Assembly (NCBI GenBank): GCA_964291265.2
Contig: OZ219746.1
Coordinates: 32,001 to 96,000, forward strand
Reading direction: 5' to 3'
Length of the DNA stretch: 64,000 bases
DNA from: Alphaproteobacteria bacterium
GTDB taxonomy: Bacteria > Pseudomonadota > Alphaproteobacteria > SP197
The position numbers and the translations under genes were made by a program. Positions 42,088 through 60,149 of the stretch are shown here, in pieces. The number at the start of each line of letters is the position of its first letter. Within the stretch, counting starts at the first letter, position 1. Under the pieces are notes generated by a model. It searched no databases and was not told the DNA's origin. It was given only the letters and a program-made list of their open reading frames with translations.

Positions 42088-45021
42088 CTAGACGATCTGA
42101 CGCTGCGCCAGGTCAGCGAAGGGACCGTCCCGCGCCATGAGTTCTTCATAGTGGCCGGTCTCGACGATCCGCCCCTCCTTCATCACGAAAATCCTGTCGG
42201 CGTCGCGGATCGTGCTCAGCCGATGGGCGATGACGATGCGCGTGATGTTGAGTGTGCGGAGCGATTCCTGAACGGTCAATTGAGTTCGATTGTCAAGTGC
42301 GCTGGTCGCCTCATCGAACAGCATGACCCGCGGCTTGCGGGCCAGGGCGCGGGCGATCAGCACTCTCTGCTTCTGTCCGCCGGACAATCCGGTGCCGCCT
42401 TCGGGCAGCACCGTATGCATCCCCATCGGCATGGCCCGGATCTCATCCTCGAGTCCTGCAGCCCGGGCGGCCGCCCAGGCCTCCTCCATGGTCAACGAGG
42501 AGGAGCCCGAGATATTCTCCAGAATGCTCGCGGCAACCAGCTTGCTGTCCTGGATCACAACCCCCATCAGGTTCCGCACCGTTGGCAGGTCGAGATGCAG
42601 GAGGTCATGACCGTCAATCAGAACCGCTCCCGAATCAGGGCGTTCAAAGCCGAGCAGCAGACGGTAGAGCGTCGACTTCCCGGAACCGGACGTCCCGACG
42701 AATGCCACATAGTCGCCTTGCCGGATGCTGAAGGACACATTGTCCACCGCGTTGGGCGTGTCCGGCAGGTAGCGGAAGGTGACCCGCGCAAACTCGATAT
42801 GTCCCGTGAGGTCTGTCGGAACGAAACTGCCGACGCCGCTCTCGAGCGGGCATTCGAGGATCGGCCGGACGCGCTCGAACAGCGGAACGGCGCTGCTGAT
42901 CGTCGTCCAGGCGCCGGTCAGGGAAACGATCGAGGCGGCGAACTGTCCGAACGCCGCATTGAAGGACAGGAAATCGGCAATGTCGAAGGACTCCGACGGT
43001 CCGCCTTCAATGAGCGAATACCATATGAAGGCGAAGAGAACGAGCAGGGACAACGGCATGAACATCGCATTCACGGTGTGCTGTCCGGCCCCCCAGAATC
43101 GCGCGGCGAGCGTGGCGCGCCGCTGGGCGGCGAACTGACGCGCCCAGAGCGCAAGCGCATAGAATTCGGCGTTCGCCATCCGCAGCTTTCCCACCCCGGT
43201 GATCATCTGGAAGACGAACCCGTCGATAAGTCCCTGCGTGCGAAACGCGGTGCGGTGGCAACGCACCTGGCGGCGTACCAGAAACCATGATGCTGCGACC
43301 AGCGCCAGCGAGATGCCGCATGCGCAGAGGGCGAGAGTCCAGCTGTAGTGGAAGAGAAGGGCGAGGCTGAAGACGGAGAACAGGCTGCTGACCAGCCCAT
43401 GCACGGTGGCGCCGGTCAGCAGTTGTCGGATCATGCCGACGCCGTTGGCCCGGTCGGCGAGGTCGCCCGCGGTGAAGCGGCGGAAGAACGATGTCGGCAG
43501 GGAAACCAGCCGGTTCCACACGGAGGCCTGAAGCTGCTCGTCGACCCGGCCCTCGACCCGCAAGGCCGCCAGGGCGCCCACGACATCAAACGCCGCGGCG
43601 CCCAGCGCACCCAGGCCAAGCGCGCCGAGGGCAGCGATCCACATCTGCGTGTCACCACGCGGAATGATCTCGGCCAGAAGCTTGCCCGTGATGATCGGCG
43701 TCAGGAGGGCGACCAGGCTGCTCAGGACGGCCATTGCAGCCAGGAGCCGGAAATCCCGTCCACACCGGCGCAGGCCGTGAAGCAGCGCCGCCAGGCCGGT
43801 CCTGACGCGATCCGGCAGGGGAGCGTACAGCATGACAGCGCGACGTTCGATCCCCTCGGCGGCCTTGCGGTCGACAGTCCAGACCCGCCCGGCCTCCGGG
43901 TCGACGGCGCGGTAGGAGCCGCGGCCGTTCGAAAGGACCGCCAGCGGCCGGGCGCCATCGATCAAACGCCCGACGAAGGAAGGCCCGTGGCGCCTGGGCC
44001 AGTCGTCCGCAAGCGCTATCTCGCGCGTCCTCATCCCGGAAAGACGGGTAAAGGAGGCCAGGGTTCCCGCGTCAGACGTCTGGCTTGCTTCGTGGCTGTT
44101 TCGGGAAGCGCCAAGGTCGCCGCCGACGGACCTGGCGACCAGACTCGCCGCCGTGAACAAGGGCGCGCGGTTGGCTGCCGGCGCCGCCATCTCGTCGCCT
44201 GTCGCCGTGTTCAGGACCTCGCCGATACCCTGGAGGATCGTCGATGTGACCGTCTCGCGGTCCTTGCGGCTTGTCCGGCTGCGTTCCCGGGCGGTGGTGA
44301 TGTCCCTTTCGTCGACGAGCTGCGCCGCTCTGAGCAGCAGCGTGCTGAAACGGTCCATGGCCGGCCAGAGCCGGTCCGTGCCCAGGAGCGCCGGGGTGTG
44401 CACCGCCGAGACCTCGGTGTCGGCGGCGAGGTGCAGCCAGGTCCATTCCGACAGCGGCAGAAGCGTCCTCGCTCCGACGGCGAACTCTCGGTTTCCGATG
44501 AAGTGGGTCGACCGGTCCGCCGAGACCCAGATCACGTCCGAGTGATGCGCGCCCACCGCGAGGCCGGCAGGGTAGGGCACGTTCGGGTCGGCTTCGAGCA
44601 ACTGCATGCCGCGCGGCGGCAGAAGCCGGTTTCGCGACAGAAATTCCGACAGGTTCGATATCCACCCGTCGATGAGGGTGAGCGTGCCGATGCTCAACGC
44701 TCCCTCGGCGTTGAGCAACGATCGTTCCGTCTCCATGATGGCGGCGTCTCGAGACGGAACGGCAAGGAAGGAAAGCCTCTCCTGACCGGACTCGGCACTT
44801 TCCAGCGCCGGTCCGTCAAGGGCGGCCTGGCCGGCGACGACACGAGTGATGAAGGGGCTGCGGTGAAGCGGCAGGTCACCACTGCTCCTGACCGCGAAAA
44901 TGTCCAGATAGCCCCGGGCGACCATGACGACGCGCCCGGGATCGTTCAGAATGATGGGTCTGAACGCGCCCGTTTCCCGGGGTGGGCCGAAGATGTGCGC
45001 GATGGAGTCGGGTACGGGCAC
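42088..45021 (-). CDS. NHLP bacteriocin system ABC transporter, permease/ATP-binding subunit (no peptidase)
   Basis: TM domain, GTSGSGKST, LSGGQKQR, FDEATSALD. Confidence 0.92.
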   Translation of the reverse strand: MPVPDSIAHIFGPPRETGAFRPIILNDPGRVVMVARGYLDIFAVRSSGDLPLHRSPFITRVVAGQAALDGPALESAESGQERLSFLAVPSRDAAIMETERSLLNAEGALSIGTLTLIDGWISNLSEFLSRNRLLPPRGMQLLEADPNVPYPAGLAVGAHHSDVIWVSADRSTHFIGNREFAVGARTLLPLSEWTWLHLAADTEVSAVHTPALLGTDRLWPAMDRFSTLLLRAAQLVDERDITTARERSRTSRKDRETVTSTILQGIGEVLNTATGDEMAAPAANRAPLFTAASLVARSVGGDLGASRNSHEASQTSDAGTLASFTRLSGMRTREIALADDWPRRHGPSFVGRLIDGARPLAVLSNGRGSYRAVDPEAGRVWTVDRKAAEGIERRAVMLYAPLPDRVRTGLAALLHGLRRCGRDFRLLAAMAVLSSLVALLTPIITGKLLAEIIPRGDTQMWIAALGALGLGALGAAAFDVVGALAALRVEGRVDEQLQASVWNRLVSLPTSFFRRFTAGDLADRANGVGMIRQLLTGATVHGLVSSLFSVFSLALLFHYSWTLALCACGISLALVAASWFLVRRQVRCHRTAFRTQGLIDGFVFQMITGVGKLRMANAEFYALALWARQFAAQRRATLAARFWGAGQHTVNAMFMPLSLLVLFAFIWYSLIEGGPSESFDIADFLSFNAAFGQFAASIVSLTGAWTTISSAVPLFERVRPILECPLESGVGSFVPTDLTGHIEFARVTFRYLPDTPNAVDNVSFSIRQGDYVAFVGTSGSGKSTLYRLLLGFERPDSGAVLIDGHDLLHLDLPTVRNLMGVVIQDSKLVAASILENISGSSSLTMEEAWAAARAAGLEDEIRAMPMGMHTVLPEGGTGLSGGQKQRVLIARALARKPRVMLFDEATSALDNRTQLTVQESLRTLNITRIVIAHRLSTIRDADRIFVMKEGRIVETGHYEELMARDGPFADLAQRQIV

Positions 45022-45025
45022 GTTC

Positions 45026-47215
45026 TCAACCCGACGTGATCAGCGTGCGGTAAAGACCGTCGGTTTCGATCAGTTCATCGTGCCGGCCTTCCTGGACAAC
45101 CCGGCCACCGTCGAGCACGACGATCCGGTCGGCGTCCCGGATCGTGCTGAGCCGATGGGCAATGATCAGGCAGGTGCAACCGCGCTGGCGGAGGTTGTCG
45201 TCAATCTCCATTTCGGTTGCAGGATCGAGTGCGGCGGTGGCTTCATCGAACACGATGATGTGCGGATCGGGCGCAAGCGCCCGCGCGATTTCAAGACGCT
45301 GGCGTTGACCGCCGCTCAAGTTTCGGCCGCCTTCCTCTATCGGCGCGTCGTACTTGTCCGGTCGCGCCATGATGTCGTCGAGAATGGCGGCATCGCGCAG
45401 GGCCTGGGCGACCCGACGGTTGCTGACGGTCGAGTTCCAGAGGGTGATGTTGTCCCGCACGCTTCCCTCGAACAGGACGATTTCCTGATCGACATAGGCG
45501 ACAGTCTCGGCGATGTGGCTCGGGGACAGGTCCTGCAGCCGGTCTGCATCGATGCGCACCGTACCGGACCAGGGATTGAGCAGGCCGCAAACCAGCTTGC
45601 CGACGGTCGACTTGCCGCTGCCGGAACCGCCGACAAGGGCAACCCGCTGGCCCGGATTGATCTCAAGGCTGAAATTCTCGATCAGCGGCGCCTCCTGCCG
45701 GTTGTAGCCGAAGGTGACATTGTCGAGCCTGACAAAACCCGAGCAGCGCGGACGTTCGCCCTCGTCGGACCGGCGCATGCCGCGAACGACCCGCCGATCC
45801 GGCCTGTAGTTCAACACGTCGTCGAGCCGGGCAATGTCGGCCTTGACTGTCTGCAGGCTGGCGCCGAACTGGATCAGACCCTCAATCGGCTGGGAGAAGC
45901 TGCGCGCAAGACTCTGAAAGGCAACCAGCCCGCCGACGGTCAGCACGCCCTCCAGGAGGCGCAGACCACCGACGCCCAGAATGGCAACGGTCGTCAGTGC
46001 CGTGAGCAGAGGCGGCACGACGTTCAGGAGGCTTGTCAACCGGCCGAGGTCCTGCTGGGCGGCCACGACGTTGGCATGCATGCCGGACAGGCGTGAGAAC
46101 AGGTCGCTCTCCGTGCCGTTGGCCTTCAGCGTTTCGATCATGCTGAGGCCGGCGACCGACGCACCCGCGACCTTGCCCTGTTCCTTGAGCAGGCGGCGGC
46201 TGGCATTCTCCCGGGCGCTTGAGACCACGCGAAGGGCGAACAGGTTGACGATCCCCATGGCGAACACGACGAGCGCCAGGATCATGTCGTAGGCCAGCAT
46301 GACGGCCGCATAGGCGATCATGGTGAGCATGTTGACGGCATTGGTGGCGAGCTCGCCTGAAACCACCCGCGCCACATTGTCGTTCGACGCGACCCGGTTG
46401 GCGATGTCGCCCGCAAAACGTTGCGAGAAGAATGCCATGGGCAGCGTCATGACATGCCAGAAGAATTGCGATGTCGCGACGAGCGAAAGCTTGGTTTCCA
46501 TACGCGCAAGACAGTGCTGCTGGAACCAGGTGAGCAGGCCTTGCAGGACGGTCACGAGTGCGAGGCCGATGAGAAGCGGTACAACGAGATTCTCGCTCCT
46601 CCCGACCAGGATCTCATCCACGAAGACCTTGGAGATGGTCGGCAGGGCAAGCCCTGGAACCAGCAGCGCGAGAGTCGCGAGGACAACGAACAGCAAGGCG
46701 GACCGCGCCCGGCCCAGACGAGCGAACAAGCCCTGCAGCAGACTCGGTCGCGCACCGCTTCGATCGAACTGCTGCGTCGGCTGGAAGGCGAGGCAGACCC
46801 CGGTGAACCCCTCGTCGAACTCCTGCATGGATATGCGGCGCGGGCCTTCGGCCGGATCGTTGATGTAGACGAGACCGCGCCGGATGCCCTCGAGCACGAT
46901 GAAATGGTTGAAATTCCAGAACACGATCATGGGGAAGGGAAGATCGAACAGGCGTCCCGGATCGCGGCGGAAGCCGCGCGCATCGAGGCCGAGTTCCCTG
47001 GCCGCCCGCAGCATGTTGACCGCCTTGCTGCCGTCGCGCGACACGCCGCAGCGCACCCGCAGTTCTTCCAGGGGCACCCACTTGCCGTAGCGGGCAAGAA
47101 TCATCGCCAGACAGGCGGCGCCGCATTCCGTCGCCTCCATCTGCAGGATGGTGGGTACGCTTCGCCTGCCGCCGCGCCTGCGGGAAAGGTTCGCTCGCAG
47201 CTTGGTGGAGTTCAC
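45026..47215 (-). CDS. NHLP bacteriocin system ABC transporter with C39 peptidase
   Basis: QMEATECGAACL, FWNFNHFIV, GGSGSGKST, LSGGQRQR. Confidence 0.95.
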   Translation of the reverse strand: MNSTKLRANLSRRRGGRRSVPTILQMEATECGAACLAMILARYGKWVPLEELRVRCGVSRDGSKAVNMLRAARELGLDARGFRRDPGRLFDLPFPMIVFWNFNHFIVLEGIRRGLVYINDPAEGPRRISMQEFDEGFTGVCLAFQPTQQFDRSGARPSLLQGLFARLGRARSALLFVVLATLALLVPGLALPTISKVFVDEILVGRSENLVVPLLIGLALVTVLQGLLTWFQQHCLARMETKLSLVATSQFFWHVMTLPMAFFSQRFAGDIANRVASNDNVARVVSGELATNAVNMLTMIAYAAVMLAYDMILALVVFAMGIVNLFALRVVSSARENASRRLLKEQGKVAGASVAGLSMIETLKANGTESDLFSRLSGMHANVVAAQQDLGRLTSLLNVVPPLLTALTTVAILGVGGLRLLEGVLTVGGLVAFQSLARSFSQPIEGLIQFGASLQTVKADIARLDDVLNYRPDRRVVRGMRRSDEGERPRCSGFVRLDNVTFGYNRQEAPLIENFSLEINPGQRVALVGGSGSGKSTVGKLVCGLLNPWSGTVRIDADRLQDLSPSHIAETVAYVDQEIVLFEGSVRDNITLWNSTVSNRRVAQALRDAAILDDIMARPDKYDAPIEEGGRNLSGGQRQRLEIARALAPDPHIIVFDEATAALDPATEMEIDDNLRQRGCTCLIIAHRLSTIRDADRIVVLDGGRVVQEGRHDELIETDGLYRTLITSG

Positions 47216-48462
47216 TGTCCGGTCAGCTTCTTCAGCAGCGGAATGGCCATGGCGATGGGGCGCTGGCTCGTGACCTTGACATCGATGCTGGCGAGCGTTC
47301 CGGAGATCAGCGCCTCACTTGCTCCCTTCGTCGTGGTCCAGGCGAAACCGCTCGCCGTCGATGGATCGGGCAGCAGCGTCACGCGGCTGGCGTATGGCGG
47401 CCCGTTCTGGGAGAAGATCTGGGCAAGCTCCTGATTCTGCAACACGGTGACCATGCCGCTGACGCTTACCGGAAACTCCGACACGTTCTCGACCAGACCC
47501 TTGACAAAGCCATGCGTCTGCGGCTGCGTGGTCGCAGGAGAGACCAACACCTTCATTCCCGGCTCGACCCGTTTGCCATCGGCCGGTGGAATGTACATCA
47601 GCACCTCGACTTCTTCGTTCGAGCCGGTCTTGATGCTGAGCACGGGCTGGCCCGAAACGAGCACCGAACCCAGGGCGGCCTTGATCTCGATGACACCGCC
47701 GGAAACCGGCGCCAGGATCTGTTGCGACTGCAGACGTGTCTGGAGTTCACGAGCCCGCAGGCGCGCCTCCTGAAGACGGGTGTCGGCACTGCCGACCTGG
47801 ACGCGGTGATCGTTGAGGCGCGTCAACTCCCGCGCTTCCAGCGTCTCGAGCCGGTGAGTGGTTTCGAACAACTCCTGCAGTGCGCGGTCAAACGCCTGCT
47901 GGCTGCGCTCCAGGGTAACCCTTGTGACGACGCGTTCATCGTAGAGCTGGCGGTGGCTGTCGAGGCGTTCACGGGCGCTGTGCACTGCCTCGCGGCCAAT
48001 GCTCTCGAGCTGTTCAAGGCGAGCCTGCTGCTTGGCCACGTTGTTCTTGAACAACTGATCCTCTGCTTCGAACGCTGCCTTGAGATTGTCCAGGGCCCGT
48101 TCGCTCTCTTCAACCAAGGCGAGAGCGCTGCGGTAGCGTTCCGTCAGATCTGGATTCACGGTCGTGGCAACGACCTCTCCCTTGTCAACCGATTCACCGA
48201 CCGTGAAGGCGATATCGGTCAGCGTGCCCGTATCGACGGCCACGGCGTCAATCACCGTGCCACCGGTGTTCAGCAGTATTCCGTTGGCACTCACATAGGT
48301 GGAAACGGATCCCCACACCGACCAGGCCACCAGCGCGGCGACGAATGCCATCAAGGCGCACAGCGCCACCCATTGCCTGGCCGAAACGATCGAAAGTGCA
48401 CGATCGATCTTCTCCGGTTCGGACAGCCGGTCCAGCGCTGCCTTTCTGAACAGTTCCGCCAT
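47212..48462 (-). CDS. NHLP bacteriocin system secretion protein (HlyD family)
   Basis: LFRKAALDRLSEPEKID, single TM, coiled coil, SGFAWTT. Confidence 0.92.
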   Translation of the reverse strand: MAELFRKAALDRLSEPEKIDRALSIVSARQWVALCALMAFVAALVAWSVWGSVSTYVSANGILLNTGGTVIDAVAVDTGTLTDIAFTVGESVDKGEVVATTVNPDLTERYRSALALVEESERALDNLKAAFEAEDQLFKNNVAKQQARLEQLESIGREAVHSARERLDSHRQLYDERVVTRVTLERSQQAFDRALQELFETTHRLETLEARELTRLNDHRVQVGSADTRLQEARLRARELQTRLQSQQILAPVSGGVIEIKAALGSVLVSGQPVLSIKTGSNEEVEVLMYIPPADGKRVEPGMKVLVSPATTQPQTHGFVKGLVENVSEFPVSVSGMVTVLQNQELAQIFSQNGPPYASRVTLLPDPSTASGFAWTTTKGASEALISGTLASIDVKVTSQRPIAMAIPLLKKLTGQ

Positions 48463-48535: not shown

Positions 48536-50059
48536 TCATCTGGTTGAGAGGATCCCGGGAGCGAGCTTCCACTTCACCTCGCGGGCCTCGCGGGCGAGAT
48601 CCGGCACACCGGCAATCCCGAGTCTCCGCGAGGTCAGCGCACCCACCGCTTCCAGCAGGCGATAGGCCTCGACGGTCACGTCGCGTTCAGCCGAAAGCGC
48701 GCTGATCTGGCGCGTCACGACACGCCGTTCGGCATCCAGAATCTCCCGGGTCGTGCGCTCTCCGAACTCGGCCTCGCGCTTGATCCCTGCCAGGGCGGTG
48801 CGTGATGCCTCGACTGCGGTCGCAAAGGCCGCCTGCCTCTGCCGGGCCGCTTCCAGGTTCCGCCAGGCGCTTTCGACCAGTTGCGAGGCACTGCGCACCG
48901 CATCGAGCCATTCGTTGCGGCGCTGGGCCTGAAGATGTCGGGCTCGGCGAATCCGCGGACCTGTCACCCCCGCCTGATAGATCGGCACGGTCAGCTGCAG
49001 CGTCAGGCTCATTTCGGTACTGTCCGGAAGAGCCGTTCCTGTCTGTCTCTTGGCCGCAGCCCTGAGGTCGACGCGCGGTCCGAGCTCGGCCGTGGCCACG
49101 AGAACCGACGCCTCGGCCACGCGAATCGCGGTTTCGGCGGCGCGAACGGCGGGCCGCTGCGTGCGGGCTGTCCGGTGTGCTTCCTCCAGGGTTCGCGGCA
49201 GGCCGGCCGGCAGGCCTGCCGCCTCGAGACCGTCCGGCACCAGGCCGGTCAACTGGAGAAGGCGGGCTCTGTGGACGTTCAGTTCGCTCGTCGCCGCCAC
49301 CATGTCCGCTGCGGCGATCTCCCGTTCCGCCTCGGCCTGGGCGACATCGGCGCCGGTCCGGTCCCCGACATCGTATTGCGCCTTGACGTCGCGAACCTGC
49401 TCATCGAAGGCGGCAAGGGAGGCTGCGCGCAACTCCACGACCCGTTCCGCCCGGAGCGTGTCGAGATAGACTGTCGCGGCGCGAAGAAGAACGGTCTGTT
49501 CGCTGTCTTCCACGGAGGCGTGGCTCCTTGACACGCTCTGGACAGCCCTTCGGAGCGCAGCGGAGTCGCGGCCGCTGCGAAACAGGTTCTGCGTGATGGA
49601 GAATGTCCAGGAGCGCGGAGAAGAATACTGGGTTCGGTCAGCACCCAGGGAAAAGGACCGATCGGAGACGATCCGTTGCCGACCGGCGCTGGCGTTGAAC
49701 TGGAGCGTGGGCAGCCATGCCGAAACGGCCTCGGGCACATCCTGGTGGCGCGCGCGCGCAGCCTCGCGGACCGCGGCCAGACCCGGGTTCGACGCCGCGG
49801 CCGCGGCCAGCACCTCCTCGATGGTCAGCGCCGAGGCCGGCGCTGCGGTGAGCGCAAGGGCAGTGCCGAGCCAGGCAAGGCACGAACGAGCGATGCGCCA
49901 TCGCAAGGGCATGGTCCTGCAACCAGGCCGCGTGCGTCTGCGGCGCCCCTGGCGGCGGCCCGAGGCTTCCATCGGGCATGCTTGCCGTCGGGCAATTCTC
50001 AGCCATCCCCCGTGCAGCGGCCGGGCCGGACCGCTTTCCGCCATTGCCGTTCGGTTCAT
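48536..50059 (-). CDS. TolC-family outer membrane channel (start uncertain, 50059 or 49912)
   Basis: Signal peptide APASA-L, SNPGL..R, WLPTL, TVPIYQAG, GERTTREILDAE. Confidence 0.88.
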   Translation of the reverse strand: MNRTAMAESGPARPLHGGWLRIARRQACPMEASGRRQGRRRRTRPGCRTMPLRWRIARSCLAWLGTALALTAAPASALTIEEVLAAAAASNPGLAAVREAARARHQDVPEAVSAWLPTLQFNASAGRQRIVSDRSFSLGADRTQYSSPRSWTFSITQNLFRSGRDSAALRRAVQSVSRSHASVEDSEQTVLLRAATVYLDTLRAERVVELRAASLAAFDEQVRDVKAQYDVGDRTGADVAQAEAEREIAAADMVAATSELNVHRARLLQLTGLVPDGLEAAGLPAGLPRTLEEAHRTARTQRPAVRAAETAIRVAEASVLVATAELGPRVDLRAAAKRQTGTALPDSTEMSLTLQLTVPIYQAGVTGPRIRRARHLQAQRRNEWLDAVRSASQLVESAWRNLEAARQRQAAFATAVEASRTALAGIKREAEFGERTTREILDAERRVVTRQISALSAERDVTVEAYRLLEAVGALTSRRLGIAGVPDLAREAREVKWKLAPGILSTR

Positions 50060-52356
50060 ATGAAGACCGCCACCGGGTTGAGATCGGCTTCGGCCTTGGG
50101 CGTTTCTCGCCACCCCATGGCAACCGGCACGTCGTACAGGCGGCCGGGAGCAAAACGCGGCCAGAAGTGACGCAATCCCGGCACGATGGTCCGGGCGACC
50201 GGCATACCGATATCCGGCCGGGTCTGGTCGAGCACCAGAAACTCCATGCCCCTCGCCTCAACCAGCGCCTGACAATACTCGACGTCATCCTTGATGTCGG
50301 TTGTCTGCGGCGCCGAATAGTCCCGGGCCAGACGTTGCCGCATCCGTTTGTCCGGCGCAAGATAGGGATGCTCGGCAAGTGTTGCATTGCGCCACCACCA
50401 GAGGCATTCCGGATCGTCATAGAGGTAGCCGTTGCCGTCGATGCCGACATCTCGAACGGCGACCAGATACTGGTTCAATTCGCACAGTGCACGGAAGGCG
50501 GCAATGCGTGGTTCGAAATGGGCGCCGGCCGAATACAGGATGTCTTCGGCCTCCTTGTCAGTCCGGCGCGACACCGCAACGAATACCGGGATACCGAGAT
50601 CGGTGGTCGCATCAAGCATTCGCAGATCGCGGTGGAAGGACTTGTAGTATTCGCGCGCGCGGTCGAAATAGGCTTCGCCGAAGCTGTCGAAGTCCAGCTC
50701 GGGAAGCGATACCCGATTGTACCACCAGCAGGCAAAGGCATCGCGCTCGACCAGCTCGAAAAATCCCTGGAGAATCGCCTCCTCCAGCGTGTTGCCTGAC
50801 GCGCAGCCGTTCGAATCCGGACCGCAATAGATCTGGCCGTCCTCCAGCGGTGCGGCGAAATAGAGCATGGAGGTGGGCAGGTGGCGGTGACACCCCCGAG
50901 TCATCGACCAGACCGGTGTCCAGCTCATCTCCACGGCAGGATCGAAACGCCTCGGGACAAAATTGAATCGCGCTCTGCGCGCGTTGATCTCTTCGGCGTG
51001 GTCGTACTGCCAGTCGCTGAAGAGCTGGACCGTGTTGGGATGGATCGCTTCGCCGTCGGCGAAATCCTCAAGGCGCGCGCGGCGGCGGATCTCGTCGCCG
51101 TGAAAGGCGCCGGAAACGCGCTCGATCGCCTCGCACAAAGCGCTCGCTTCGGCCTGTTCGGGACTGGCGCCCTTGCCCGAACTCTTGCTCCTCAGCGTGG
51201 TGCGCAGCAGGCGCAGGTTGTCGCTCCTCAGCGCTATGTTGCTGCCGGACCAGTAGACATGCAGCCACGGGTCCGTTTCGTTCGTGGAACGCACCAGTTG
51301 GGTGACCACGCCGCTCACCGGGCTGACCAGGTGACGGTAACGGGCAATCGTCTCCCGCGGTGGCACCGAACGCGAGCCGCCGGAATTGGCCACCGTTCGG
51401 GGGCATGGTGCGAGCGTGACTGGAACCGGCGCCCGGTCGGGGCGGTAGAGCGCCGCGTCGCCACAGACCCCGCATTGCGGTCGGCGGAACACCCGATGCC
51501 GGTCGTTTTCGAGACTGTGGGCATCGACCGAGATCGCGTGCTCATGGAGCGCCGCCCTCTCCCCGAAGACGATCCATCTGGCAATCTCGACCGCGGCGAG
51601 ACCGAGGATTGCCTCGACAAGCGGTGCTGGCGCGACTCGGCGCAGGACAGCGCCCCCCCCGCCGGTGCGCAGGAAACTCTCGATTTCGCGATTGCTGCGC
51701 AGACGATGGGCCAGACAGGCCCAGCACGGTCCGCCGTCGCCAGGCCGGAAAACCGGACCGAAAAGCGCCGTCAGGCCGTTGGGCGCCACCGGCAGCCACG
51801 GAAGTCCGGATGCCAGGTGACGGCGGTTGGCCTCGGCGCAGTCCTCACCGAGCAGGTCGTCGCACAGGATGACCGAGAGGGTCGGATTGTCGTCGGTCAC
51901 GGTGACGCCCATCGCAGCAAGCGCGGCACCGAGACCGTCGCCCGTCACCGCAACCCGCACGGCGTCCAGCCGTGTCTCCGCCCAGCGTGGCGACGCGCCG
52001 CACGCACTCCAGAAGGCAGCCATGTCCCGGCTGATCGTGGCGTCTGCTGAGACAACGTAGCCCTTCGACGCCAGCGAGACCAGCGCGGTCTGGACTTCGA
52101 TCGCCGAATACCGGTCGGCCAGCGCCGCGGCGATTTCGTGGCGCGAGTGGCTGCCGTCAAGCAGGGGCAGGATATCGATGTAGCGCCGGCCGTGGAGAAC
52201 TCCGCTGAACACCTCGGACACGATCAGCGCGGTCGTGTCGTCGTGAAGGCGAACATCGAGATGCGGCGCCAGCATCGGCCGCTCGACAAGGCCGCGGTCG
52301 TCCGCCAGACTGCACAGGATGGCCATTGACGGGGGAGTGACCGAATCGGCGGCCAT
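50056..52356 (-). CDS. Fused leader-binding/E1-like-YcaO cyclodehydratase 2
   Basis: GPVF..CWACL, CGVC, SSGKG, EAIER, SNGCASGNTLEEAILQGFFELVERDA, C-terminus LNPVAVFI. Confidence 0.93.
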   Translation of the reverse strand: MAADSVTPPSMAILCSLADDRGLVERPMLAPHLDVRLHDDTTALIVSEVFSGVLHGRRYIDILPLLDGSHSRHEIAAALADRYSAIEVQTALVSLASKGYVVSADATISRDMAAFWSACGASPRWAETRLDAVRVAVTGDGLGAALAAMGVTVTDDNPTLSVILCDDLLGEDCAEANRRHLASGLPWLPVAPNGLTALFGPVFRPGDGGPCWACLAHRLRSNREIESFLRTGGGGAVLRRVAPAPLVEAILGLAAVEIARWIVFGERAALHEHAISVDAHSLENDRHRVFRRPQCGVCGDAALYRPDRAPVPVTLAPCPRTVANSGGSRSVPPRETIARYRHLVSPVSGVVTQLVRSTNETDPWLHVYWSGSNIALRSDNLRLLRTTLRSKSSGKGASPEQAEASALCEAIERVSGAFHGDEIRRRARLEDFADGEAIHPNTVQLFSDWQYDHAEEINARRARFNFVPRRFDPAVEMSWTPVWSMTRGCHRHLPTSMLYFAAPLEDGQIYCGPDSNGCASGNTLEEAILQGFFELVERDAFACWWYNRVSLPELDFDSFGEAYFDRAREYYKSFHRDLRMLDATTDLGIPVFVAVSRRTDKEAEDILYSAGAHFEPRIAAFRALCELNQYLVAVRDVGIDGNGYLYDDPECLWWWRNATLAEHPYLAPDKRMRQRLARDYSAPQTTDIKDDVEYCQALVEARGMEFLVLDQTRPDIGMPVARTIVPGLRHFWPRFAPGRLYDVPVAMGWRETPKAEADLNPVAVFI

Positions 52357-52357
52357 C

Positions 52358-53764
52358 TCAATTCGCCTGTCCGCTGTCCTTCGGAGGACCGCCGAGGATG
52401 AAGTCGCCGACCGTACCCTCGATCACCGGATCCAGGCCGGTCACCCGCGCGAAACGCGCCGAGTTCCCCGTACCGAGGCCGCACGGAGAAAGACCGAGAT
52501 CCGTCGCCACGAGATACAGGGTCTGGTAAAGTGCGCCCACATTGCGCAGAATCACGCCATAGGCGATCGATCGGTACTTCCACATGACCCTGGCGAAACG
52601 GGCGCTGAACGCCAGCACGATCTGAGGGTTGGCGAGGTGTCCCGTCGCCACTCTGGCATCCTCCACGATCGCCTCCACCTCGGTCGTGCGCCCGGCGATC
52701 GCGACCAGTTCATGGGTCGCTGCGTCGTAGTGGTACAGGCCGGACTCCAGGCCGTCACAGCGATCGACCACCGGATAGATCTCGAGTTCGTAGCTGGCGC
52801 CGCCTGAGGGATAAGGCCGTCTCGTGACTTCAACATCGTAGGACGGCCCCGCGGGATCGCCGACCGGGACCGCAAAGCGTTCGAGAATCCGCGCGGCGCG
52901 GTCGAGCAGCGCGCCGAGGTCCGCCAGGGAGATCGGACGGGCTTCGTCATAGACCCTCTCCGATCGGCGCCGTTCGAGAATCCGGACGAGCGACTCTCCT
53001 CCGGCGTCCTCCGGCGCAACCGGCAACGCGGTCCGCCGGCCAGGCCAGGGGGGACGGACGCCAGGCGGCGGATCGACCTGGCCGACGAACGGGAAGATTC
53101 CGCCGATCGGATCACCATGCCAGCCCGGCCGATGATGCCAATGATACAGCAGGTCATGAAACTCCCACTGCATCAAGGCCTCGCTGCGCGGGTCGCCTGC
53201 CGCACCCCCGGTCTCCAGAAAGCCCTCGGCGGCCAGGGCCCGTCGGATGACAGGGACCTCGAGGCGGCTCGGATCGGAGAGGCGGAAGCGTGTGCCGGCC
53301 AGCGGAGATTCCAGTATCCAGTCCCGCCCGGAACGGCGCAGGCAGGCAAAGCGGTCGAGGTTGGCCTCCGGCGGCGGCATGTCCTCCGCCAGGCGGGGGG
53401 CATGGCCGTCCCACTGCGGCTGCATCACTGCCTGTTCGCCCGTCTCGTCGATCACGAGCAGTTCCATCCCCCGGAACCGATAGAGGGTCTGCAGGGCGAC
53501 AAGATAGGAGGCTGCGCACGACGGCCCGCCGGCCTCGATGACCGCGTCGCGGAGTTCGCTCAGCGGGGCGCCGGCGCGAAGCATCGTGTTGGCCGTCCCA
53601 TAGGCCCGCGCGTAGGGCGCGAAAGGCGGTCCGATCCCCAGCACCGAGTCCTCGACGACAAGGGACCTGCCGTCCGCAGACGCTGCCAGCTTTCGCCCGG
53701 CGGGCAGGCGGGCGAGGATCGCGGGCTCCCCGAGCAGATCGAAAAATCCCATCCGTCCCTCCAA
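52358..53764 (-). CDS. SagB/ThcOx-type FMN azoline dehydrogenase
   Basis: WEFHDLLYH, RRRSER, RPYPSGGA.YELE, WKY catalytic motif. Confidence 0.93.
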   Translation of the reverse strand: MEGRMGFFDLLGEPAILARLPAGRKLAASADGRSLVVEDSVLGIGPPFAPYARAYGTANTMLRAGAPLSELRDAVIEAGGPSCAASYLVALQTLYRFRGMELLVIDETGEQAVMQPQWDGHAPRLAEDMPPPEANLDRFACLRRSGRDWILESPLAGTRFRLSDPSRLEVPVIRRALAAEGFLETGGAAGDPRSEALMQWEFHDLLYHWHHRPGWHGDPIGGIFPFVGQVDPPPGVRPPWPGRRTALPVAPEDAGGESLVRILERRRSERVYDEARPISLADLGALLDRAARILERFAVPVGDPAGPSYDVEVTRRPYPSGGASYELEIYPVVDRCDGLESGLYHYDAATHELVAIAGRTTEVEAIVEDARVATGHLANPQIVLAFSARFARVMWKYRSIAYGVILRNVGALYQTLYLVATDLGLSPCGLGTGNSARFARVTGLDPVIEGTVGDFILGGPPKDSGQAN

Positions 53765-56080
53765 TCAGACGAACACTGCGACGGGGTTCAGATCGGCTTC
53801 CGCGGTCGGCTCGGCAAGCCATCCCATCTTGATCGGCACGTCATAGAGACGCCCCGGAGCGAACCGCGCCCAGAAATGCCTCATGCCCGGCACGATGGTG
53901 CGGGCGACCGGCATGCCGATATCCGGCCGGGTCTGGTCGAGGACCAGGAATTCCATGCCGAGGTCCTCGACCAGTGACCGACAATGCTCGACATCCTCGC
54001 GCGTATCGGTGGTCCGGGGAGCGCGATAGTGCTCCACGCTTCGCTCGGGCAGGGCGGAGTCCGGCACCAGGTAGGGATGCTCTCTCACGCGGGCATTCTT
54101 CCACCACCACAGGCTCTCGGGGTCGTCGAAGAGATAGCCGGTGCCGTCGGCCTTCACGTCCCGGACTGCGGTCAACTGCTGGTTCAGTTCGCACACGGCC
54201 CTCATGCCCGCGATACCGGGGTCCAGGTGGGCGCCGGCGGCAAACACGATATCCTCCTGGTCCTTGTCCGTTCGACGCGATACCGCAGCGAACACCGGAA
54301 TGCCGATATCGTGGGTCACGTCGATCATCCAGAGATCGCGGTTGCAGGCGGCGTAGTAGTCGCGCGCTTCCGCAAGGTAGGCGTCGCCGAAACTGTCGAG
54401 CGCCACCGCGGGACGCCGGAGTCGGTTGTACCACCAGCAAGCGAAGGCATCACGCTCCACCAGTTCCAGGAATCCCTGCAGGATGGCCTCCTCCAGGGTG
54501 TTGCCGGCCGCACAGCCGTTGGTGTCCGGGCCGAAGAACGGCTCGTCATGTTCCTGCGGCATGGAGAAATAGAGCATCCCGGTGGGCAGGTAGCGATGGC
54601 ATTCCTGCGTTAACGACCAGACCGGGGACCAGCTCATCTCAACGGTCGTGTCGAAACGTGCCGGAACATAGGCGAACTTCCGTTGCAGGGCATTGAGTTC
54701 CGCGGCGTTGTCGTATTGCCGGTCGCTGTAGTGCAGAACCGTTTCCGGGTGGATGGCTTCGCCATTGCGAAAATCCACGAAGCGGGTCCGGCGGCGGATT
54801 TCGTCGCCGCGGTAAGCGCCGGAATGCCGCTCGATGGCTTCGCACAGCGCGCTCGCTTCGGCCTGTTCTCGCGTGCTTCCCTTGCCGGAGTTAAGGGAGC
54901 GGATGCTGGTGCGCAACGCCAGCAGGCTGCGCGCCTGCATCGCGAGGTTGGCGCCGGCCACATTGACATGCAGCCAGGAATCCCGCTCGTCGGTGATGCG
55001 CAGCAACCGATTCACCGCCCCGGTGACCGGACTGACGAGGTGACGGTAGCGGCGCAGGGTGTCCTGCGGCGGCACGGAGCGAAAACCGCCGCTGGTGCGT
55101 ACCGGTTTCGGGCTGGGGGCGAGACGCAGCGGCGAAGCCGGCCGGTCCACGCGGTACAGCGCCGGGTCGCCGCAGGACCGGCACTGCGGCCGCCGCGTGA
55201 CCGGATGGATGGTGGTCCTCATGCCGAGTGCTTCCAGTGCCATGGTATGGCGGTGGAGCGTGGCGCTGTCCCCGAAGACGACCCATTTGGCAAGTTCCAG
55301 GGCCGCCAGCCCGATCACGACGTCGGACAGACTGTCCGGCGTATTCGCGGGGAACGCGAACCCGGCCGGGAGGCCGCGCAGATAGCTTGCGATCTCGACA
55401 TTGCTGCCGATCCGGCTCGCCAGACAGGTCCAGCACGGCGCGTCCTGCTCAGCAGGGCGGAACACCGGGCCAAAGAGGCAAAAGACGCCCACGGGCTTGA
55501 CCAGAGCCCAGGGGATGCCTGACTCGAGATGCCGGCGGTTGGTCCGCGCATGAGCATCGTCCAGGTAATCGTCCGTGACGACGACCGACAGCGTCGGCCT
55601 GTCCGGCCCAACGGTCAGCCCGAGGTCTGCGAGCGCCGCGCCGAGCCGCCCGTCGTCTCCGAAGAGGGCAATCCGGGCGGCGCCGAGACGCCGTTCGGCC
55701 CATCTCGGCGTGGCCCCCTGCGAACACCAGAACGCGGCGGACACCCTGTCCATGGCGAAGTCGGCCGAGACGACGCAACCCTTGGCTGCAAGCGAAACCA
55801 TGGCGGTCTGAACGCGCAGCGCCGAATGCCGCTCCGACAGTTCGGCGACGATCTCGCGGCGGGTATGCCCGCTCTCGAGCAGAGGCGCGAGGTCGCGATA
55901 CAACTCTCCGGCCAAGAGGATGCTCGCGGTCTCGGACGCCAGGATAAGGGCCCCGTCCTCCGAAACGCGGGAAGCAAGATGGGGTGCGAGCAACGGCCTT
56001 TCGATGATGCCACGGTCGCATTCGGTGAACCGTTGCGGCGGCGCGAATATCGGTTTCCACCCCGTTCGGTCGACAGACAC
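53765..56080 (-). CDS. Fused leader-binding/E1-like-YcaO cyclodehydratase 1
   Basis: GPVF..CWTCL, CRSC, NSGKG, EAIER, TNGCAAGNTLEEAILQGFLELVERDA, C-terminus LNPVAVFV. Confidence 0.93.
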   Translation of the reverse strand: MSVDRTGWKPIFAPPQRFTECDRGIIERPLLAPHLASRVSEDGALILASETASILLAGELYRDLAPLLESGHTRREIVAELSERHSALRVQTAMVSLAAKGCVVSADFAMDRVSAAFWCSQGATPRWAERRLGAARIALFGDDGRLGAALADLGLTVGPDRPTLSVVVTDDYLDDAHARTNRRHLESGIPWALVKPVGVFCLFGPVFRPAEQDAPCWTCLASRIGSNVEIASYLRGLPAGFAFPANTPDSLSDVVIGLAALELAKWVVFGDSATLHRHTMALEALGMRTTIHPVTRRPQCRSCGDPALYRVDRPASPLRLAPSPKPVRTSGGFRSVPPQDTLRRYRHLVSPVTGAVNRLLRITDERDSWLHVNVAGANLAMQARSLLALRTSIRSLNSGKGSTREQAEASALCEAIERHSGAYRGDEIRRRTRFVDFRNGEAIHPETVLHYSDRQYDNAAELNALQRKFAYVPARFDTTVEMSWSPVWSLTQECHRYLPTGMLYFSMPQEHDEPFFGPDTNGCAAGNTLEEAILQGFLELVERDAFACWWYNRLRRPAVALDSFGDAYLAEARDYYAACNRDLWMIDVTHDIGIPVFAAVSRRTDKDQEDIVFAAGAHLDPGIAGMRAVCELNQQLTAVRDVKADGTGYLFDDPESLWWWKNARVREHPYLVPDSALPERSVEHYRAPRTTDTREDVEHCRSLVEDLGMEFLVLDQTRPDIGMPVARTIVPGMRHFWARFAPGRLYDVPIKMGWLAEPTAEADLNPVAVFV

Positions 56081-56099
56081 TACGACAGCACACCCGGTG

Positions 56100-56145: not shown

Positions 56146-56153
56146 TTCCCTAC

Positions 56154-56441
56154 TCATTCATCCTTGCGCGCCACGACATCCCGGTAGGTCGAAGGCGCCG
56201 GCAAGAGGATATGGACGCGGTCATGGGTGTTGAAGACCAGCTTGACCTTGGCCCCTTCCGGGAAATCGAAACCCTCGGACCTGAGGACGGCGGTCGGGTC
56301 GGCGTCCATCTTCGCCTTGAAGTCGGGGTCGCCGTAGTACTTCGCCACCACGTCTGCATAGAGTTGCTGACGTTCCTTCAGGTCCCCCGACGAAAGAAGG
56401 TCGGTGACCAGGGCGTCGATCGGCTTCAGTGGTTTTTCCAC
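56154..56441 (-). CDS. Nitrile-hydratase-leader-like protein lacking a GG site and core
   Basis: VVAKYYGDPDFKAKMDADPTAVL...KVKLVFNTHDRVHILLP; GGAGGAG RBS before the GTG. Confidence 0.75.
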   Translation of the reverse strand: MEKPLKPIDALVTDLLSSGDLKERQQLYADVVAKYYGDPDFKAKMDADPTAVLRSEGFDFPEGAKVKLVFNTHDRVHILLPAPSTYRDVVARKDE

Positions 56442-56487
56442 ATCTCTCTCCTCCGCTGCACGATGACCATAGAGCAACCGCGACCTT

Positions 56488-56907
56488 CTAGCTGGCGCTG
56501 CCCGCGGTGCCCGCCGTGCCCGCCGTGGAAAACGAACTGAAGAAGGTACTGGTCTGGAAGGTACTCGCCGAGCTGACGCTGCCCGCGCTGCCAGCCGTGG
56601 CGCCACCCGACACCGCGCTCAGGCTCTCGTCAGCCAGGTCCATGTTCGGGTCGGGCGGCAAGATGAAATGCACGACCTCATCGGTGTTCGCGACCACGTC
56701 GACCTGCATGCCGACGACGGGAACGTCGAAACCGAAGGCCTTGTACACCTCGGTGCCGCTGGCTTCATCGATCGAGGAGCGGAACTCCTCGTCGCTCCGG
56801 TACCGGTCGGCGGTCTCGAGGAATCGCTCGTAGCTCTTCGTATATGTCCCCATGGCCATCGGCGACATGTCGATGTTGTCGAGAAAGTCATTGCTTGGGA
56901 CGTTCAT
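56488..56907 (-). CDS. NHLP-leader RiPP precursor B (core ATAGSAGSVSSASTFQTSTFFSSFSTAGTAGTAGSAS)
   Basis: DEEFR...VVANTDEVVHFILPPDP..DLADESLSAVSGG double-Gly site; AAGGAG RBS. Confidence 0.92.
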   Translation of the reverse strand: MNVPSNDFLDNIDMSPMAMGTYTKSYERFLETADRYRSDEEFRSSIDEASGTEVYKAFGFDVPVVGMQVDVVANTDEVVHFILPPDPNMDLADESLSAVSGGATAGSAGSVSSASTFQTSTFFSSFSTAGTAGTAGSAS

Positions 56908-56982
56908 GGTTGTGTCTCCTTGGCAAATCTTGTCTGAGGGGATCGTTGTCGGCAGGCCGGTGCGTTGCGCAAGGCCTCAGCC

Positions 56983-57372
56983 TCAACCAGCCGAACCCGC
57001 CGATCCGGCGGTGGATGCACTGCCGAGGCTGGAAAAGGACGTGAAGCAGAGGAAGGTGCTCGCCGATCCGACAGTGCCGGCCGTGCTGGCCGTGCTGCCG
57101 CCGGAAATCTGGCTCAACTGCTCATCCGCCAGATCGCTGTTGGGATCGGGCGGCATGACGAAGTGCGTCACCTCGTCGGAATCCATGAGAAACCGATAAT
57201 CCACTCCCTCCAGGCGTGTCATCCCGAACTCGTCGAAGACATCGTCGTTGTCGCCGCGGTCAATCCGGTCACGGAAAGCCGCATCGGTGTGGTAGCGGTC
57301 GGAAATGGCGACGACGAGATCACGGCGATCATCGTTCATTTCCACTTCCTGCATGAACTGCTGGCTGTTCAT
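56983..57372 (-). CDS. NHLP-leader RiPP precursor A (core STASTAGTVGSASTFLCFTSFSSLGSASTAGSAGSAG)
   Basis: DAAFR...DSDEVTHFVMPPDP..DLADEQLSQISGG double-Gly site. Confidence 0.92.
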   Translation of the reverse strand: MNSQQFMQEVEMNDDRRDLVVAISDRYHTDAAFRDRIDRGDNDDVFDEFGMTRLEGVDYRFLMDSDEVTHFVMPPDPNSDLADEQLSQISGGSTASTAGTVGSASTFLCFTSFSSLGSASTAGSAGSAG

Positions 57373-57638
57373 CAGCTTGCTCCGTGAAGGTTGCAGGACG
57401 GCAGATTATCCCCTGTTGTATGCTTGTGCAAGGGACGTTCGGACACATTCGACGATGTCGTGGCGGATCACGGTGACAGGGGTTCGACCGTGGCGGCGGC
57501 CCGGGGCATGGCTCGGTGTCTTCGTCGTTCCGCAGATACGGCCCGATCCTTCTGTCCGCCGGGACATTGACATTACACTGCGCCACGCTGGATGGCTGAC
57601 CCCGATTGGCCCTTTCACAGGAAGGCTCAAGCAGGCTT

Positions 57639-60149
57639 ATGGACCTCGACATTCTCATCGCCCGGGCGTCGCCGCCGCCGGAGCGCGGCGGCGACGGGCC
57701 GTTCGTCATGGCCCCCACCGACCCCGACTCCCGGTCTCGCCGCGAAGGAAGGCTTCTCGACGCCTTCGGCTCGCGGCAGGCGCTGGCCCGACATGCCGAG
57801 GGGCTGGGGTTGTCCGTGGGCGCCTATCTGGCGAGATTCGGCGATGTCCGCCTGGAGGGTCCCGCGCCGGACTGGGGTTGCGCCTTGCGGGAGATCCTCG
57901 CCCGGCTGGCTGATACCGAGTCGCCATTCTCGGCCGTCTATCCGTGGGCCCGCGGCCGCATCGAGGCGGAATGGCCCGGTGGCCTGCCGCACGGCGCCGG
58001 CGCGCTGGACGGGGCGGTGTCCCATCTCGAATGGCGTTTCCGCGCGATCCTGATGCAGACCATGCGGTATGAGGCCAGGTTGGGGGCGTCGCGCGTGACC
58101 TGGGCGGCGCGGTTCGCCCGCAGTCCGGCGCTGGCCTACGCGCTCGGCCGCACGCTGGCCGACTGGCGTGCGGACCTCGTTCGGATGCTGCGCCATGCAG
58201 CCGAAGACCGGGCCGAACTGTCCCGGCGCTTCTTCGACGGTAGAGATCCCGGGCTGCTGGTCGGTATCGAGCAGGGACTCGGCGATCCGCATGCCGGAGG
58301 GCGGTCGGTCGCAATCCTGCGCTTCGCCAACGGTTCGGTCGTTTTCAAGCCCAAGGACCTGCGAATCGCCGGCGTCATGCGGGAGATCGTCGGCCTGATC
58401 TCCAGCGTCGAGCTTTCGCCGCCCTCCACGGTGCCGCGTGCGGGCTATGCCTGGGAAAGGGAGTACGCGCCGCAGCCGGTCGCCGCCGCCGCGGATGCCG
58501 ACCGTTTCTATCGGGCGCTCGGCGGCTGGCTTGCCTTGCTCCAGGCCATGAACGCGAGCGATTTCTGGTTCGACAACCTGATCGCCGACGGCGCCACGCC
58601 GCGGTTCGTTGATTTCGAAACGGTCCTGCAGCCGGCCTCGGCATGGCCGCCCCGGATACGGCGCCTGGTCGATGAGGAAGCGATCAGCTTCAACATGCGA
58701 GTGGCCAGCGTCGGCATCCTGCCGCTTCTAATGTCGATCAGGGAGGGTCTGGAACCGACCGACCTCGGGTGCCTCTGCCAACCGGGGGAGCACCGCACGC
58801 CGATGGGTGCCGCAGAGAATGGCGGTCTGTTTGTGTGGCAGGAAGAGCGATATGCCCCGCGCTACGAGTCCGGCGACTTCGCGGACAGCGCGGCGCATTT
58901 CGACGCCCTCGAGGACGGCTATCTCCGGGTCGCCCGGGAGCTGGGGTCGGCGGCGACGCAGGAGCGAATCCTGGCGGCGCTCGAAAATGTGCCGGACGCG
59001 CAGCTTCGCGTCCTCCTGATCGACACCTGGACCTGCTATCGGATCGTTCAGGAATCCCTCCTTCCCGGCACCCTGTCAGACGGTGTTTGGCGCGAGATCG
59101 TCTTGCACAAGATGCTGCCCCGCCACGCCGAGCTGACCGGCCCTCTCCGCGAGGCGGCGGTGCGCGACATGCGCCGCCTCGACATCCCGCTGTTCCTGAC
59201 CGCGCCGGCCTCTCGGGACCTTCTGGGGGTGGAGGGTGAGGCGTGGCGGAACGTGTTCAGGAAGGATGCCATTGCCACCTTGCGCGGCGCATTCGGCACC
59301 ATGTCTGCAGCCACCGAACGGGAACGGCTGGCGTGGCTGCGTTCGTCGTTTTCCCTGCGCGCAGCCAATCCGCCTCGGCAGACCCCGGAGCGCGGCCGGC
59401 CGGCGCCGGCAAGGCCGGAGGATCTTCTGGCCTGGGCAGATCAGATCGCGAGCGACGTTCGGGATCTCGCCGTGACGAACGTGTGCGGATATCCGACCTG
59501 GGTCGGCATTGTGCACGAGGTTCACTTCGGAAGACGTTGCATGGCGCCGCTCCCCATCGACATCCTGTCGGGCCGCGCAGGAATCGCTCAGGCGTTGCTT
59601 GAGCTGAGCGACAGGCTCGGTCGTGCGGACCTGGCGGACCTCGCGTGCGAGACCCTGAGGGGGGCGGCGCGCGATTATGCCGAGGCCATGGACTTCAGCC
59701 AGGATCTGGGAGTCGGATATGCTGTCGGTGCCGGCGGACTCCTGCACATGCTGGTGTGCGAGCCCTCTCTGCGGGACGAAGCGCAGATGGTCTACCGAAG
59801 CGCTGCGGAAAAGGAAGCATGGATGCAGTCCGGGAGCGACTTCGTGTCCGGCCTCGCTGGTTGGAAGGACGCGGTTCTGACCCTCGGCGGCAGGGTTCCG
59901 GAGCGGCACGGCCGACAGCGGCCTTATGCGCCCTCGGCCCTGCCTCGACTCGCTCCCTGGCTGGACCCCGGACAGGCGAAGCCGGTCTGCGCCGACCGGC
60001 GGGCGGCAGCGCTCATGAGGCGGGATCGTGATCGACTGGGAAGCTGGTTCGCCGAGAGATGGGCCGATGATCGACACGATCTCTCGGGGGTGGATGGGAC
60101 CCCCGCGCTCGCCGTCGCCTTCGCGCGTCTGGCGGATGGCCCGGCTTAG
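57639..60149 (+). CDS. LanM-like protein (DUF4135 dehydratase/kinase domain + truncated LanC-like domain)
   Basis: GLGDPHAGGRSV, VFKPKDL, SDFWFDNL, VDFET, DIPLF, DILSGRAGIA; no WCHG/CHG Zn motifs. Confidence 0.85.
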   Translation: MDLDILIARASPPPERGGDGPFVMAPTDPDSRSRREGRLLDAFGSRQALARHAEGLGLSVGAYLARFGDVRLEGPAPDWGCALREILARLADTESPFSAVYPWARGRIEAEWPGGLPHGAGALDGAVSHLEWRFRAILMQTMRYEARLGASRVTWAARFARSPALAYALGRTLADWRADLVRMLRHAAEDRAELSRRFFDGRDPGLLVGIEQGLGDPHAGGRSVAILRFANGSVVFKPKDLRIAGVMREIVGLISSVELSPPSTVPRAGYAWEREYAPQPVAAAADADRFYRALGGWLALLQAMNASDFWFDNLIADGATPRFVDFETVLQPASAWPPRIRRLVDEEAISFNMRVASVGILPLLMSIREGLEPTDLGCLCQPGEHRTPMGAAENGGLFVWQEERYAPRYESGDFADSAAHFDALEDGYLRVARELGSAATQERILAALENVPDAQLRVLLIDTWTCYRIVQESLLPGTLSDGVWREIVLHKMLPRHAELTGPLREAAVRDMRRLDIPLFLTAPASRDLLGVEGEAWRNVFRKDAIATLRGAFGTMSAATERERLAWLRSSFSLRAANPPRQTPERGRPAPARPEDLLAWADQIASDVRDLAVTNVCGYPTWVGIVHEVHFGRRCMAPLPIDILSGRAGIAQALLELSDRLGRADLADLACETLRGAARDYAEAMDFSQDLGVGYAVGAGGLLHMLVCEPSLRDEAQMVYRSAAEKEAWMQSGSDFVSGLAGWKDAVLTLGGRVPERHGRQRPYAPSALPRLAPWLDPGQAKPVCADRRAAALMRRDRDRLGSWFAERWADDRHDLSGVDGTPALAVAFARLADGPA

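Follow-up and report, generated by a model that had tools for sequence, protein, structure and literature searches.

Dehydrazoles are defined by the combination of an NHLP-type precursor, a YcaO enzyme, a dehydrogenase and a zinc-free LanM (Pei 2023, PMC10676384). As described in that report, CcaM of the carnazolamide pathway dehydrates only serines that precede an azole, acts independently of the leader and requires its cyclase domain; CcaB leaves some Ser and Thr residues unmodified, and carnazolamide was inactive in the assays presented there. The same source mentions a predicted cluster of uncultured Ca. Thioglobus that combines two YcaO/dehydrogenase pairs with a single LanMbC enzyme, and suggests that one YcaO serves each precursor. 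Nostatin A is cytostatic at nanomolar concentrations, and a preprint (bioRxiv 10.64898/2026.03.27.714872) reports the V-ATPase as its target. Type I export of NHLP peptides is marked by the models TIGR03794, TIGR03796 and TIGR03797 together with a Gly-Gly leader (Haft 2010, PMC2887384).

We examined a locus in the window, the whole 64,000-nt stretch of alphaproteobacterial DNA under analysis, for which the initial annotation had proposed an azole-rich proteusin. Our results make it probable that this locus is an intact dehydrazole-type cluster, whose predicted products are exported Dha/Gly-azole-X chains made from two cores of 37 residues each.

Gene content and class of the cluster

The unit covers 18 kb (window positions 42088-60149), and all 11 of its genes are present as stop-free open reading frames (Table 1). 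Ten genes follow one another closely on the minus strand, separated by small gaps or joined by stop/start overlaps, with ribosome-binding sites retained, and the LanM-like gene is divergent, on the plus strand; the earlier description of intact and tightly packed genes was thus borne out. Related genomes are similar in DNA from 42067-42089 up to 60134-60152, so that the limits drawn by the initial annotation are those of a shared unit. The 4.8-Mb genome has one copy of the cluster, plus a short YcaO remnant on C2 (G000:C2:2481741-2481929) that shows 77% identity to YcaO2 across 47 aa.

Table 1. Genes of the cluster, with positions in the window.
Feature	Position	Strand	Properties
Precursor A	56983..57372	-	129 aa; leader of NHLP type containing L(X)4L and Gly-Gly; core A after Gly-Gly, 37 aa, ~56986-57096
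Precursor B	56488..56907	-	139 aa; leader of the same type as precursor A; core B after Gly-Gly, 37 aa, ~56491-56601
Core-less NHLP-fold protein (leader-only)	56154..56441	-	95 aa
YcaO1	53765..56080	-	LynD-type cyclodehydratase with fused RRE, E1-like and YcaO parts; keeps its ATP-binding motifs
SagB/ThcOx-type flavin dehydrogenase (azoline to azole)	52358..53764, likely ATG 53752	-	TIGR03605
YcaO2	50056..52356	-	60% identical to YcaO1; ATP motifs kept; resembles LynD
TolC-family outer-membrane channel	48536..50059; ORF extendable to 50113, then overlaps YcaO2	-	
HlyD adaptor of NHLP system	47212..48462	-	TIGR03794
C39 peptidase-ABC transporter	45026..47215	-	TIGR03796; retains the catalytic Cys, His and Asp motifs
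Second NHLP ABC subunit	42088..45021	-	TIGR03797
Predicted short LanMbC-clade dehydratase (LanM-like)	57639..60149, likely ATG 57639; ORF open from 57606	+	836 aa

The curated Pfam/NCBIfam cut-offs were exceeded by both YcaOs (TIGR03604 and TIGR03882), by SagB (TIGR03605, 156.6 bits against a cut-off of 78.4), and for TIGR01844, TIGR03794, TIGR03796, TIGR03797 and PF13575, in agreement with the two YcaO, SagB, TolC, HlyD, C39-ABC and ABC genes originally named. The three export models, the catalytic motifs and the Gly-Gly leader together identify an NHLP type I export system. Two of the earlier assignments stood in part. The precursors and the leader-only protein do match the NHLP model TIGR03793, and the precursors carry Gly-Gly, but all scores are below the cut-off of 50.9 bits (28 and 39.6 bits for the precursors, with E-values of 1e-6 and 4e-10, and 36.8 bits for the leader-only protein). 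Likewise, the atypical LanM contains a clear DUF4135 domain (PF13575, E 1e-60) with two PF02624 genes within 8 kb, but scores 255 on TIGR03897, under the cut-off of 304, and its LanC-like match is weak. An Atlas search gave an NHLP cluster, at 0.90, as its sole return. A promoter scan of the locus produced no sites, and terminator-like matches numbered 1 versus 1.4 expected.

The class of this cluster is already described, and its enzyme set is not an unrecognised family. We found DUF4135-YcaO synteny, which recurs in the related loci L016-L021, an azoline dehydrogenase, an NHLP-type leader (below cut-off), Ser/Thr/Cys-rich cores, a zinc-free cyclase domain and, through the proxy locus L029, grouping with LanMbC. 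The features of class II lanthipeptides are missing: zinc motifs are absent, the TIGR03897 score is below cut-off and core B contains no Cys. The initial annotation had held that a match of both cores and gene set to a characterised cluster would count against it; the enzyme set is of the dehydrazole type, and the cores are unlike those of carnazolamide and nostatin. A literature search on dehydrazoles and LanMbC under these names yielded only PMC10676384, the supplement of which may already show this subfamily.

As far as the published descriptions go, the close relatives include the carnazolamide cluster (cca) of Chryseobacterium carnipullorum, with which the locus shares an NHLP precursor, a fused YcaO, a dehydrogenase, a zinc-free DUF4135 enzyme of the same clade (by proxy) and serines before azole sites. 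However, the cca enzyme has 1015 aa compared to 836 aa here, and the cca cluster includes a radical SAM epimerase, an S-methyltransferase and an S8 protease, none of which occurs in the window's cluster; conversely, C39 type I export with Gly-Gly, two precursors, two YcaOs, a core-less protein and Gly-rich 37-aa cores without Pro distinguish the present locus. The Ca. Thioglobus cluster, like the present one, comes from a marine proteobacterium and has two YcaOs, one LanMbC and several precursors with divergent leaders, but two dehydrogenases in place of one; known by description alone, it may belong to the window's subfamily. Nostatin A (nst, Nostoc; PMC11583998) resembles the predicted products in its Dha/Dhb-azole-X triplets, made from an NHLP precursor by a YcaO, an oxidase and a LanM-like enzyme, but differs in its 30-aa core, Pro alkylation, epimerisation and sactionine bridge, for which the enzymes are absent here. 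Goadsporin and the spongiicolazolicins (per PMC10676384 and PMC11583998) are also linear peptides whose azoles and dehydro residues follow a comparable repeat, but depend on a split, glutamyl-tRNA-dependent LanB dehydratase that this locus lacks. The srp proteusins (PMC9426513, PMC11832590, bioRxiv 10.1101/2023.06.09.544420) similarly join NHLP precursors and YcaO across unrelated sponge symbionts, but have a five-residue Cys-rich core (Cys-Cys-Cys-Trp) and a flavin halogenase, neither of which is present here; no halogenase family matched among the 11 genes in Pfam/NCBIfam, and a profile search did not find an srp precursor in the window's genome. Compared with the dehydrazoles as described, this version is set apart by the shortened dehydratase, the conserved core-less protein, C39 export, the lack of an epimerase and the non-sister YcaOs.

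Several features of the flanks were recorded along the way. An autotransporter gene (38303-41482, minus strand) adjoins the cluster outside the shared unit; it contains four 132-aa repeats with 97-99% DNA identity and two Cys each, for which no convincing Pfam match was obtained, and about 8 related barrels are encoded elsewhere in the genome. Autotransporter and cluster are bracketed by AAA-ATPase/PD-(D/E)XK genes (PF09820, PF08011) at 35664-37370 and 61271-62976 (plus strand), direct repeats that are 88% identical; these were rejected as parts of the unit, lying outside its limits and having at least 20 long copies in the genome. A low-GC island (47-52%) at 2307-5056 (minus strand) encodes an AbiEii-like AAA ATPase together with a protein containing a ThiF domain, a possible anti-phage module. 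The stretch 7128-23061 is rich in mobile elements (YhgA/Rpn-like transposase, serine recombinase, IS21-like transposase), which surround a catalase-peroxidase gene, whose LysR regulator is divergent, and a gene for a flavoprotein resembling trimethylamine dehydrogenase.

Core periodicity and the predicted azole-forming enzymes

In each core, 18 of the 37 residues are Ser, Thr or Cys, and these fall into a register of triplets: the middle position is occupied by one of the three in 12 of 12 triplets of core A and in 11 of 12 of core B, with one central break. Such regularity is beyond chance (p 3e-5 for A and 1e-3 for B; 200,000 shuffles, any register counted). In core A, Ser or Thr is also first in 6 triplets, so that all 18 Ser/Thr/Cys residues stand at azole or pre-azole positions, which agrees with the structure of nostatin A and with the site preference of CcaM. 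Among seven type-A cores, all 84 middle positions are Ser, Thr or Cys, the three residues interchanging, and the pre-azole Ser positions are conserved. Because farther relatives from the same search show register breaks, the strict periodicity is limited to this subgroup. A regular expression for L(X)4L recognised only 15 of the 25 precursors and placed the cut wrongly in several; that count was set aside. The earlier statement that the cores match no known product holds for carnazolamide and nostatin, from whose cores they differ, and in the literature on carnazolamide, nostatin and spongiicolazolicin, compared mostly through titles and listings, no product with core A or B was found. The congeners G017 and G022 (L002, L003, L012, L014) carry NHLP precursors with Trp/Tyr/Asp-rich cores that are unlike azole substrates and represent a separate RiPP type.

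Both YcaO copies evolve under purifying selection (dN/dS 0.12-0.20). YcaO1 groups with the YcaOs of L019 and L020, and L019, L020 and L021 have one YcaO each within the locus stretch examined. Forcing YcaO1 and YcaO2 to be sisters was rejected (AU p 0.006; 15 rows, quick tree, after a FastTree view), which speaks against duplication in place, and the second YcaO was therefore probably recruited separately. Because YcaO2 is in two pieces in genome G049 (L040, L041), where about 13 kb separate the LanM gene from the cluster, one YcaO may suffice; by analogy to the suggestion for Ca. Thioglobus, the use of one YcaO per precursor is plausible. We also considered, and rejected, inactivity of the YcaOs on account of their non-PxP C-termini, given that carnazolamide-type YcaOs have like ends.

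Non-linear products, in which Dha or the central Cys/Thr residues form cross-links or macrocycles, or a second YcaO devoted to other chemistry such as amidine formation, seem decidedly unlikely. A thioether bridge is described at the central register break of nostatin A (PMC11583998), core B has a similar break, and the separate origin of the two YcaOs would be compatible with separate functions. However, both YcaOs pass the azoline-forming models and resemble LynD, none of the 11 genes matched TfuA, radical SAM or PatG families in Pfam/NCBIfam, the LanM-like enzyme lacks the zinc motifs, and the only Cys of core A sits at an azole position, where some relatives have Thr. Linear azole chains thus remain the preferred reading.

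The shortened LanM-like enzyme and the predicted pathway

The fold model of the LanM-like enzyme (pLDDT 93.5) has LicM2 and CylM as best structural matches, in agreement with the sequence alignment. Eight of the nine CylM dehydration residues are kept, including all four required for phosphate elimination (D227, H229, K248, D319, N324, D336, R468 and T474, equivalent to CylM D252, H254, K274, D347, N352, D364, R506 and T512), and these eight are retained in 88-89 of 89 relatives. The ninth, CylM His349, is replaced by Trp, as it also is in all 89 full-length relatives, and the resulting Asp-Phe-Trp motif is common to the long enzymes of carnazolamide-type loci; in CylM, H349A slows the enzyme and does not abolish activity (PMC4550811). 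The WCxG/CHG zinc motifs are absent from the window enzyme, and only three of the 89 relatives match one such pattern anywhere. The C-terminal cyclase-type domain is present and internally shortened by 110-150 residues relative to long LanMbC enzymes, leaving 195 residues after its first motif versus 305-346; the whole enzyme is about 190 residues shorter, the loss lying mostly inside this domain.

In a tree with the motif masked, short and long enzymes separate from 11 canonical LanMs with full support (100/100; 25 rows), and the short enzymes are sister to the long carnazolamide-type ones in both full-length and masked trees (25 and 38 rows, subsets hand-picked from matches). The window enzyme thus belongs to the LanMbC group, a placement that relies on locus L029 as the stand-in for CcaM rather than on the CcaM or NstG sequences. 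L029 serves this purpose because it has the cca gene order, with YcaO, dehydrogenase, radical SAM, LanM and S8 genes, and a precursor that agrees with CcaA at 13 of 13 core positions and in its count of 20 Ser/Thr/Cys. Scanning metagenomes for the Asp-Phe-Trp motif yielded 16 loci, most with YcaO and dehydrogenase adjoining the gene. Carnazolamide/nostatin-type clusters were seen in metagenomes at L023, L026, L029, L031, L032, L034 and L035, of which L023 and L026 leave no room for an epimerase-sized gap between their dehydrogenase and LanM genes and contain a second, distant YcaO.

Because CcaM needs the cyclase domain that is shortened here, catalytic activity could be altered, and this is the main doubt on the dehydration step, offset by purifying selection on the gene. 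If the azoles formed while the shortened enzyme stopped at phosphoserine or was inactive on the cores, azole-only or phospho-azole peptides would result. The His-to-Trp change in the DxH motif and the placement of the gene, divergent here and remote from the cluster in G049, would fit such an outcome, and phospeptin reportedly involves a kinase-only LanM homologue unable to eliminate phosphate. Nevertheless, we consider this outcome unlikely: the elimination residues are all kept, the Trp is shared with carnazolamide-type enzymes, the LanM-like gene shows dN/dS of 0.17-0.21 and is inside the operon in L019 and L020, and the pre-azole serines are conserved. Of the azole-rich proteusin proposed initially, azoles and dehydro residues are thus well supported, whereas phospho end-products become less likely because the four elimination residues of CylM are retained.

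Under the favoured model of dehydrated azole chains, which is built on characterised relatives, the YcaOs, bound to the leader, would cyclise the Ser/Thr/Cys in the middle of every triplet, and oxidation by SagB would then give 12 azoles in A (6 oxazoles, 5 methyloxazoles and 1 thiazole) and 11 in B. The LanM-like enzyme would act on the azole-bearing core in the manner of CcaM, phosphorylating and eliminating each Ser that directly precedes an azole (in A 5 Ser and possibly Thr19; in B 4 Ser) without forming lanthionine. Finally, the C39 peptidase would cut after Gly-Gly and the ABC/HlyD/TolC system would export the product. The predicted monoisotopic masses change from 3290.49 to 2960.12 (2942.11 with Dhb19) for A and from 3351.50 to 3059.17 for B. 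Such full occupancy of rings and dehydrations is an upper bound, since CcaB left some Ser/Thr unmodified. An N-terminal Dha, as expected in product A, is likely to hydrolyse to a pyruvyl cap. By analogy to known products, activity against eukaryotic or bacterial competitors is likely.

The core-less protein, spread and significance

The core-less protein stops before L(X)4L and Gly-Gly and has an invariant YYGDP motif; it matches the MprE7 leader structure over its folded part (residues 7-69) as well as the precursor leaders. It is not a broken precursor, given that a core is present in 0 of 71 relatives (one search) and that dN/dS is 0.08-0.23. The gene occurs in all eight short-LanM clusters whose precursor region was examined and in none of eight long-LanMbC loci; of 401 genomes in the class, 5 carry it. 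Three of the four other genomes with the gene were inspected for its neighbourhood: in G022 it is beside YcaO, SagB and exporter genes, with no LanM match in the genome; in G413 it precedes exporter and SagB; and in G240 it is on an 8-kb contig without YcaO, SagB, exporter or LanM. These occurrences in clusters without LanM weaken its reading as a LanM partner, and its most likely partner is the YcaO or the exporter instead. A literature search on core-less NHLPs found nothing relevant.

YcaO binding is reported to require L(X)4L plus the alpha-1 helix (Wakeel et al., PMC12455567). At three of the five aligned YcaO-contact positions of MprE7 alpha-1, the core-less family is near-fixed (Asp 53/53, Ala 52/53, Tyr 53/53), and the same positions vary in 25 precursors, mostly Asp or Glu and Arg. 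It is conceivable, if doubtful, that the leader is split, with the core-less protein providing alpha-1 to the YcaO in trans and the precursors contributing L(X)4L and the core. If so, the 836-aa enzyme would represent a minimal form of azole-dependent dehydratase, and its pathway products would be widespread, horizontally traded, rigid 12-azole peptides of sponge microbiomes.

Whole clusters with 82-90% DNA identity are found on megabase contigs labelled Alphaproteobacteria (L015, L016), Ca. Porisulfidus (L017) and Gammaproteobacteria (L018), and farther ones in Ca. Binatia and Paracoccaceae records; L017 also contains an additional precursor copy, frameshifted and with another core, ahead of the LanM gene (L017:7327-7658). 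YcaO1 is 86-91% identical in four genomes whose LeuRS is only 48-63% identical, and such near-identical clusters in distant genomes indicate horizontal movement of the unit. No close LanM orthologue was detected in 32 other genomes of the host family, two of which have distant 25% matches. The srp precursor, described as typical of sponge microbiomes (PMC9426513, PMC11832590, bioRxiv 10.1101/2023.06.09.544420), occurs in 7 of 22 congeners of the host, and for this reason the hosts are likely to be sponge symbionts. Two runs of one study contain several variants at 90-99% and leave none of the 30 bins of 52300-60300 uncovered; no piece spans this interval and one run may be the window's source, and these runs are not counted as support.

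Were the cluster a passenger of recent arrival, silent or in decay, that yields no product in this host, this would account for the failure to find it in congeners, the frameshifted copy in L017, the split YcaO2 of G049 and the YcaO remnant elsewhere in the window's genome, and the cca cluster is described as silent in culture (PMC10676384). However, every gene is intact here, the seven genes tested are under purifying selection (dN/dS 0.08-0.34 relative to four other genomes), and stop/start overlaps and ribosome-binding sites are retained, which makes such a passenger highly improbable.

Taken together, these results describe an intact dehydrazole-type cluster whose core chemistry is not new and whose products are uncharacterised. 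The only characterised products of the class that we found in the literature are carnazolamide, for which no activity was found, and nostatin A; the present cluster represents a sister subfamily with about 90 short enzymes from metagenomes, for which modification sites and masses are predicted exactly. The shortened enzyme provides a natural deletion that bears on which cyclase-like part an azole-dependent dehydratase needs, and the core-less protein may be a missing factor in heterologous expression. Its presence in different classes of bacteria suggests that the cluster has an ecological role comparable to the one proposed for srp clusters.
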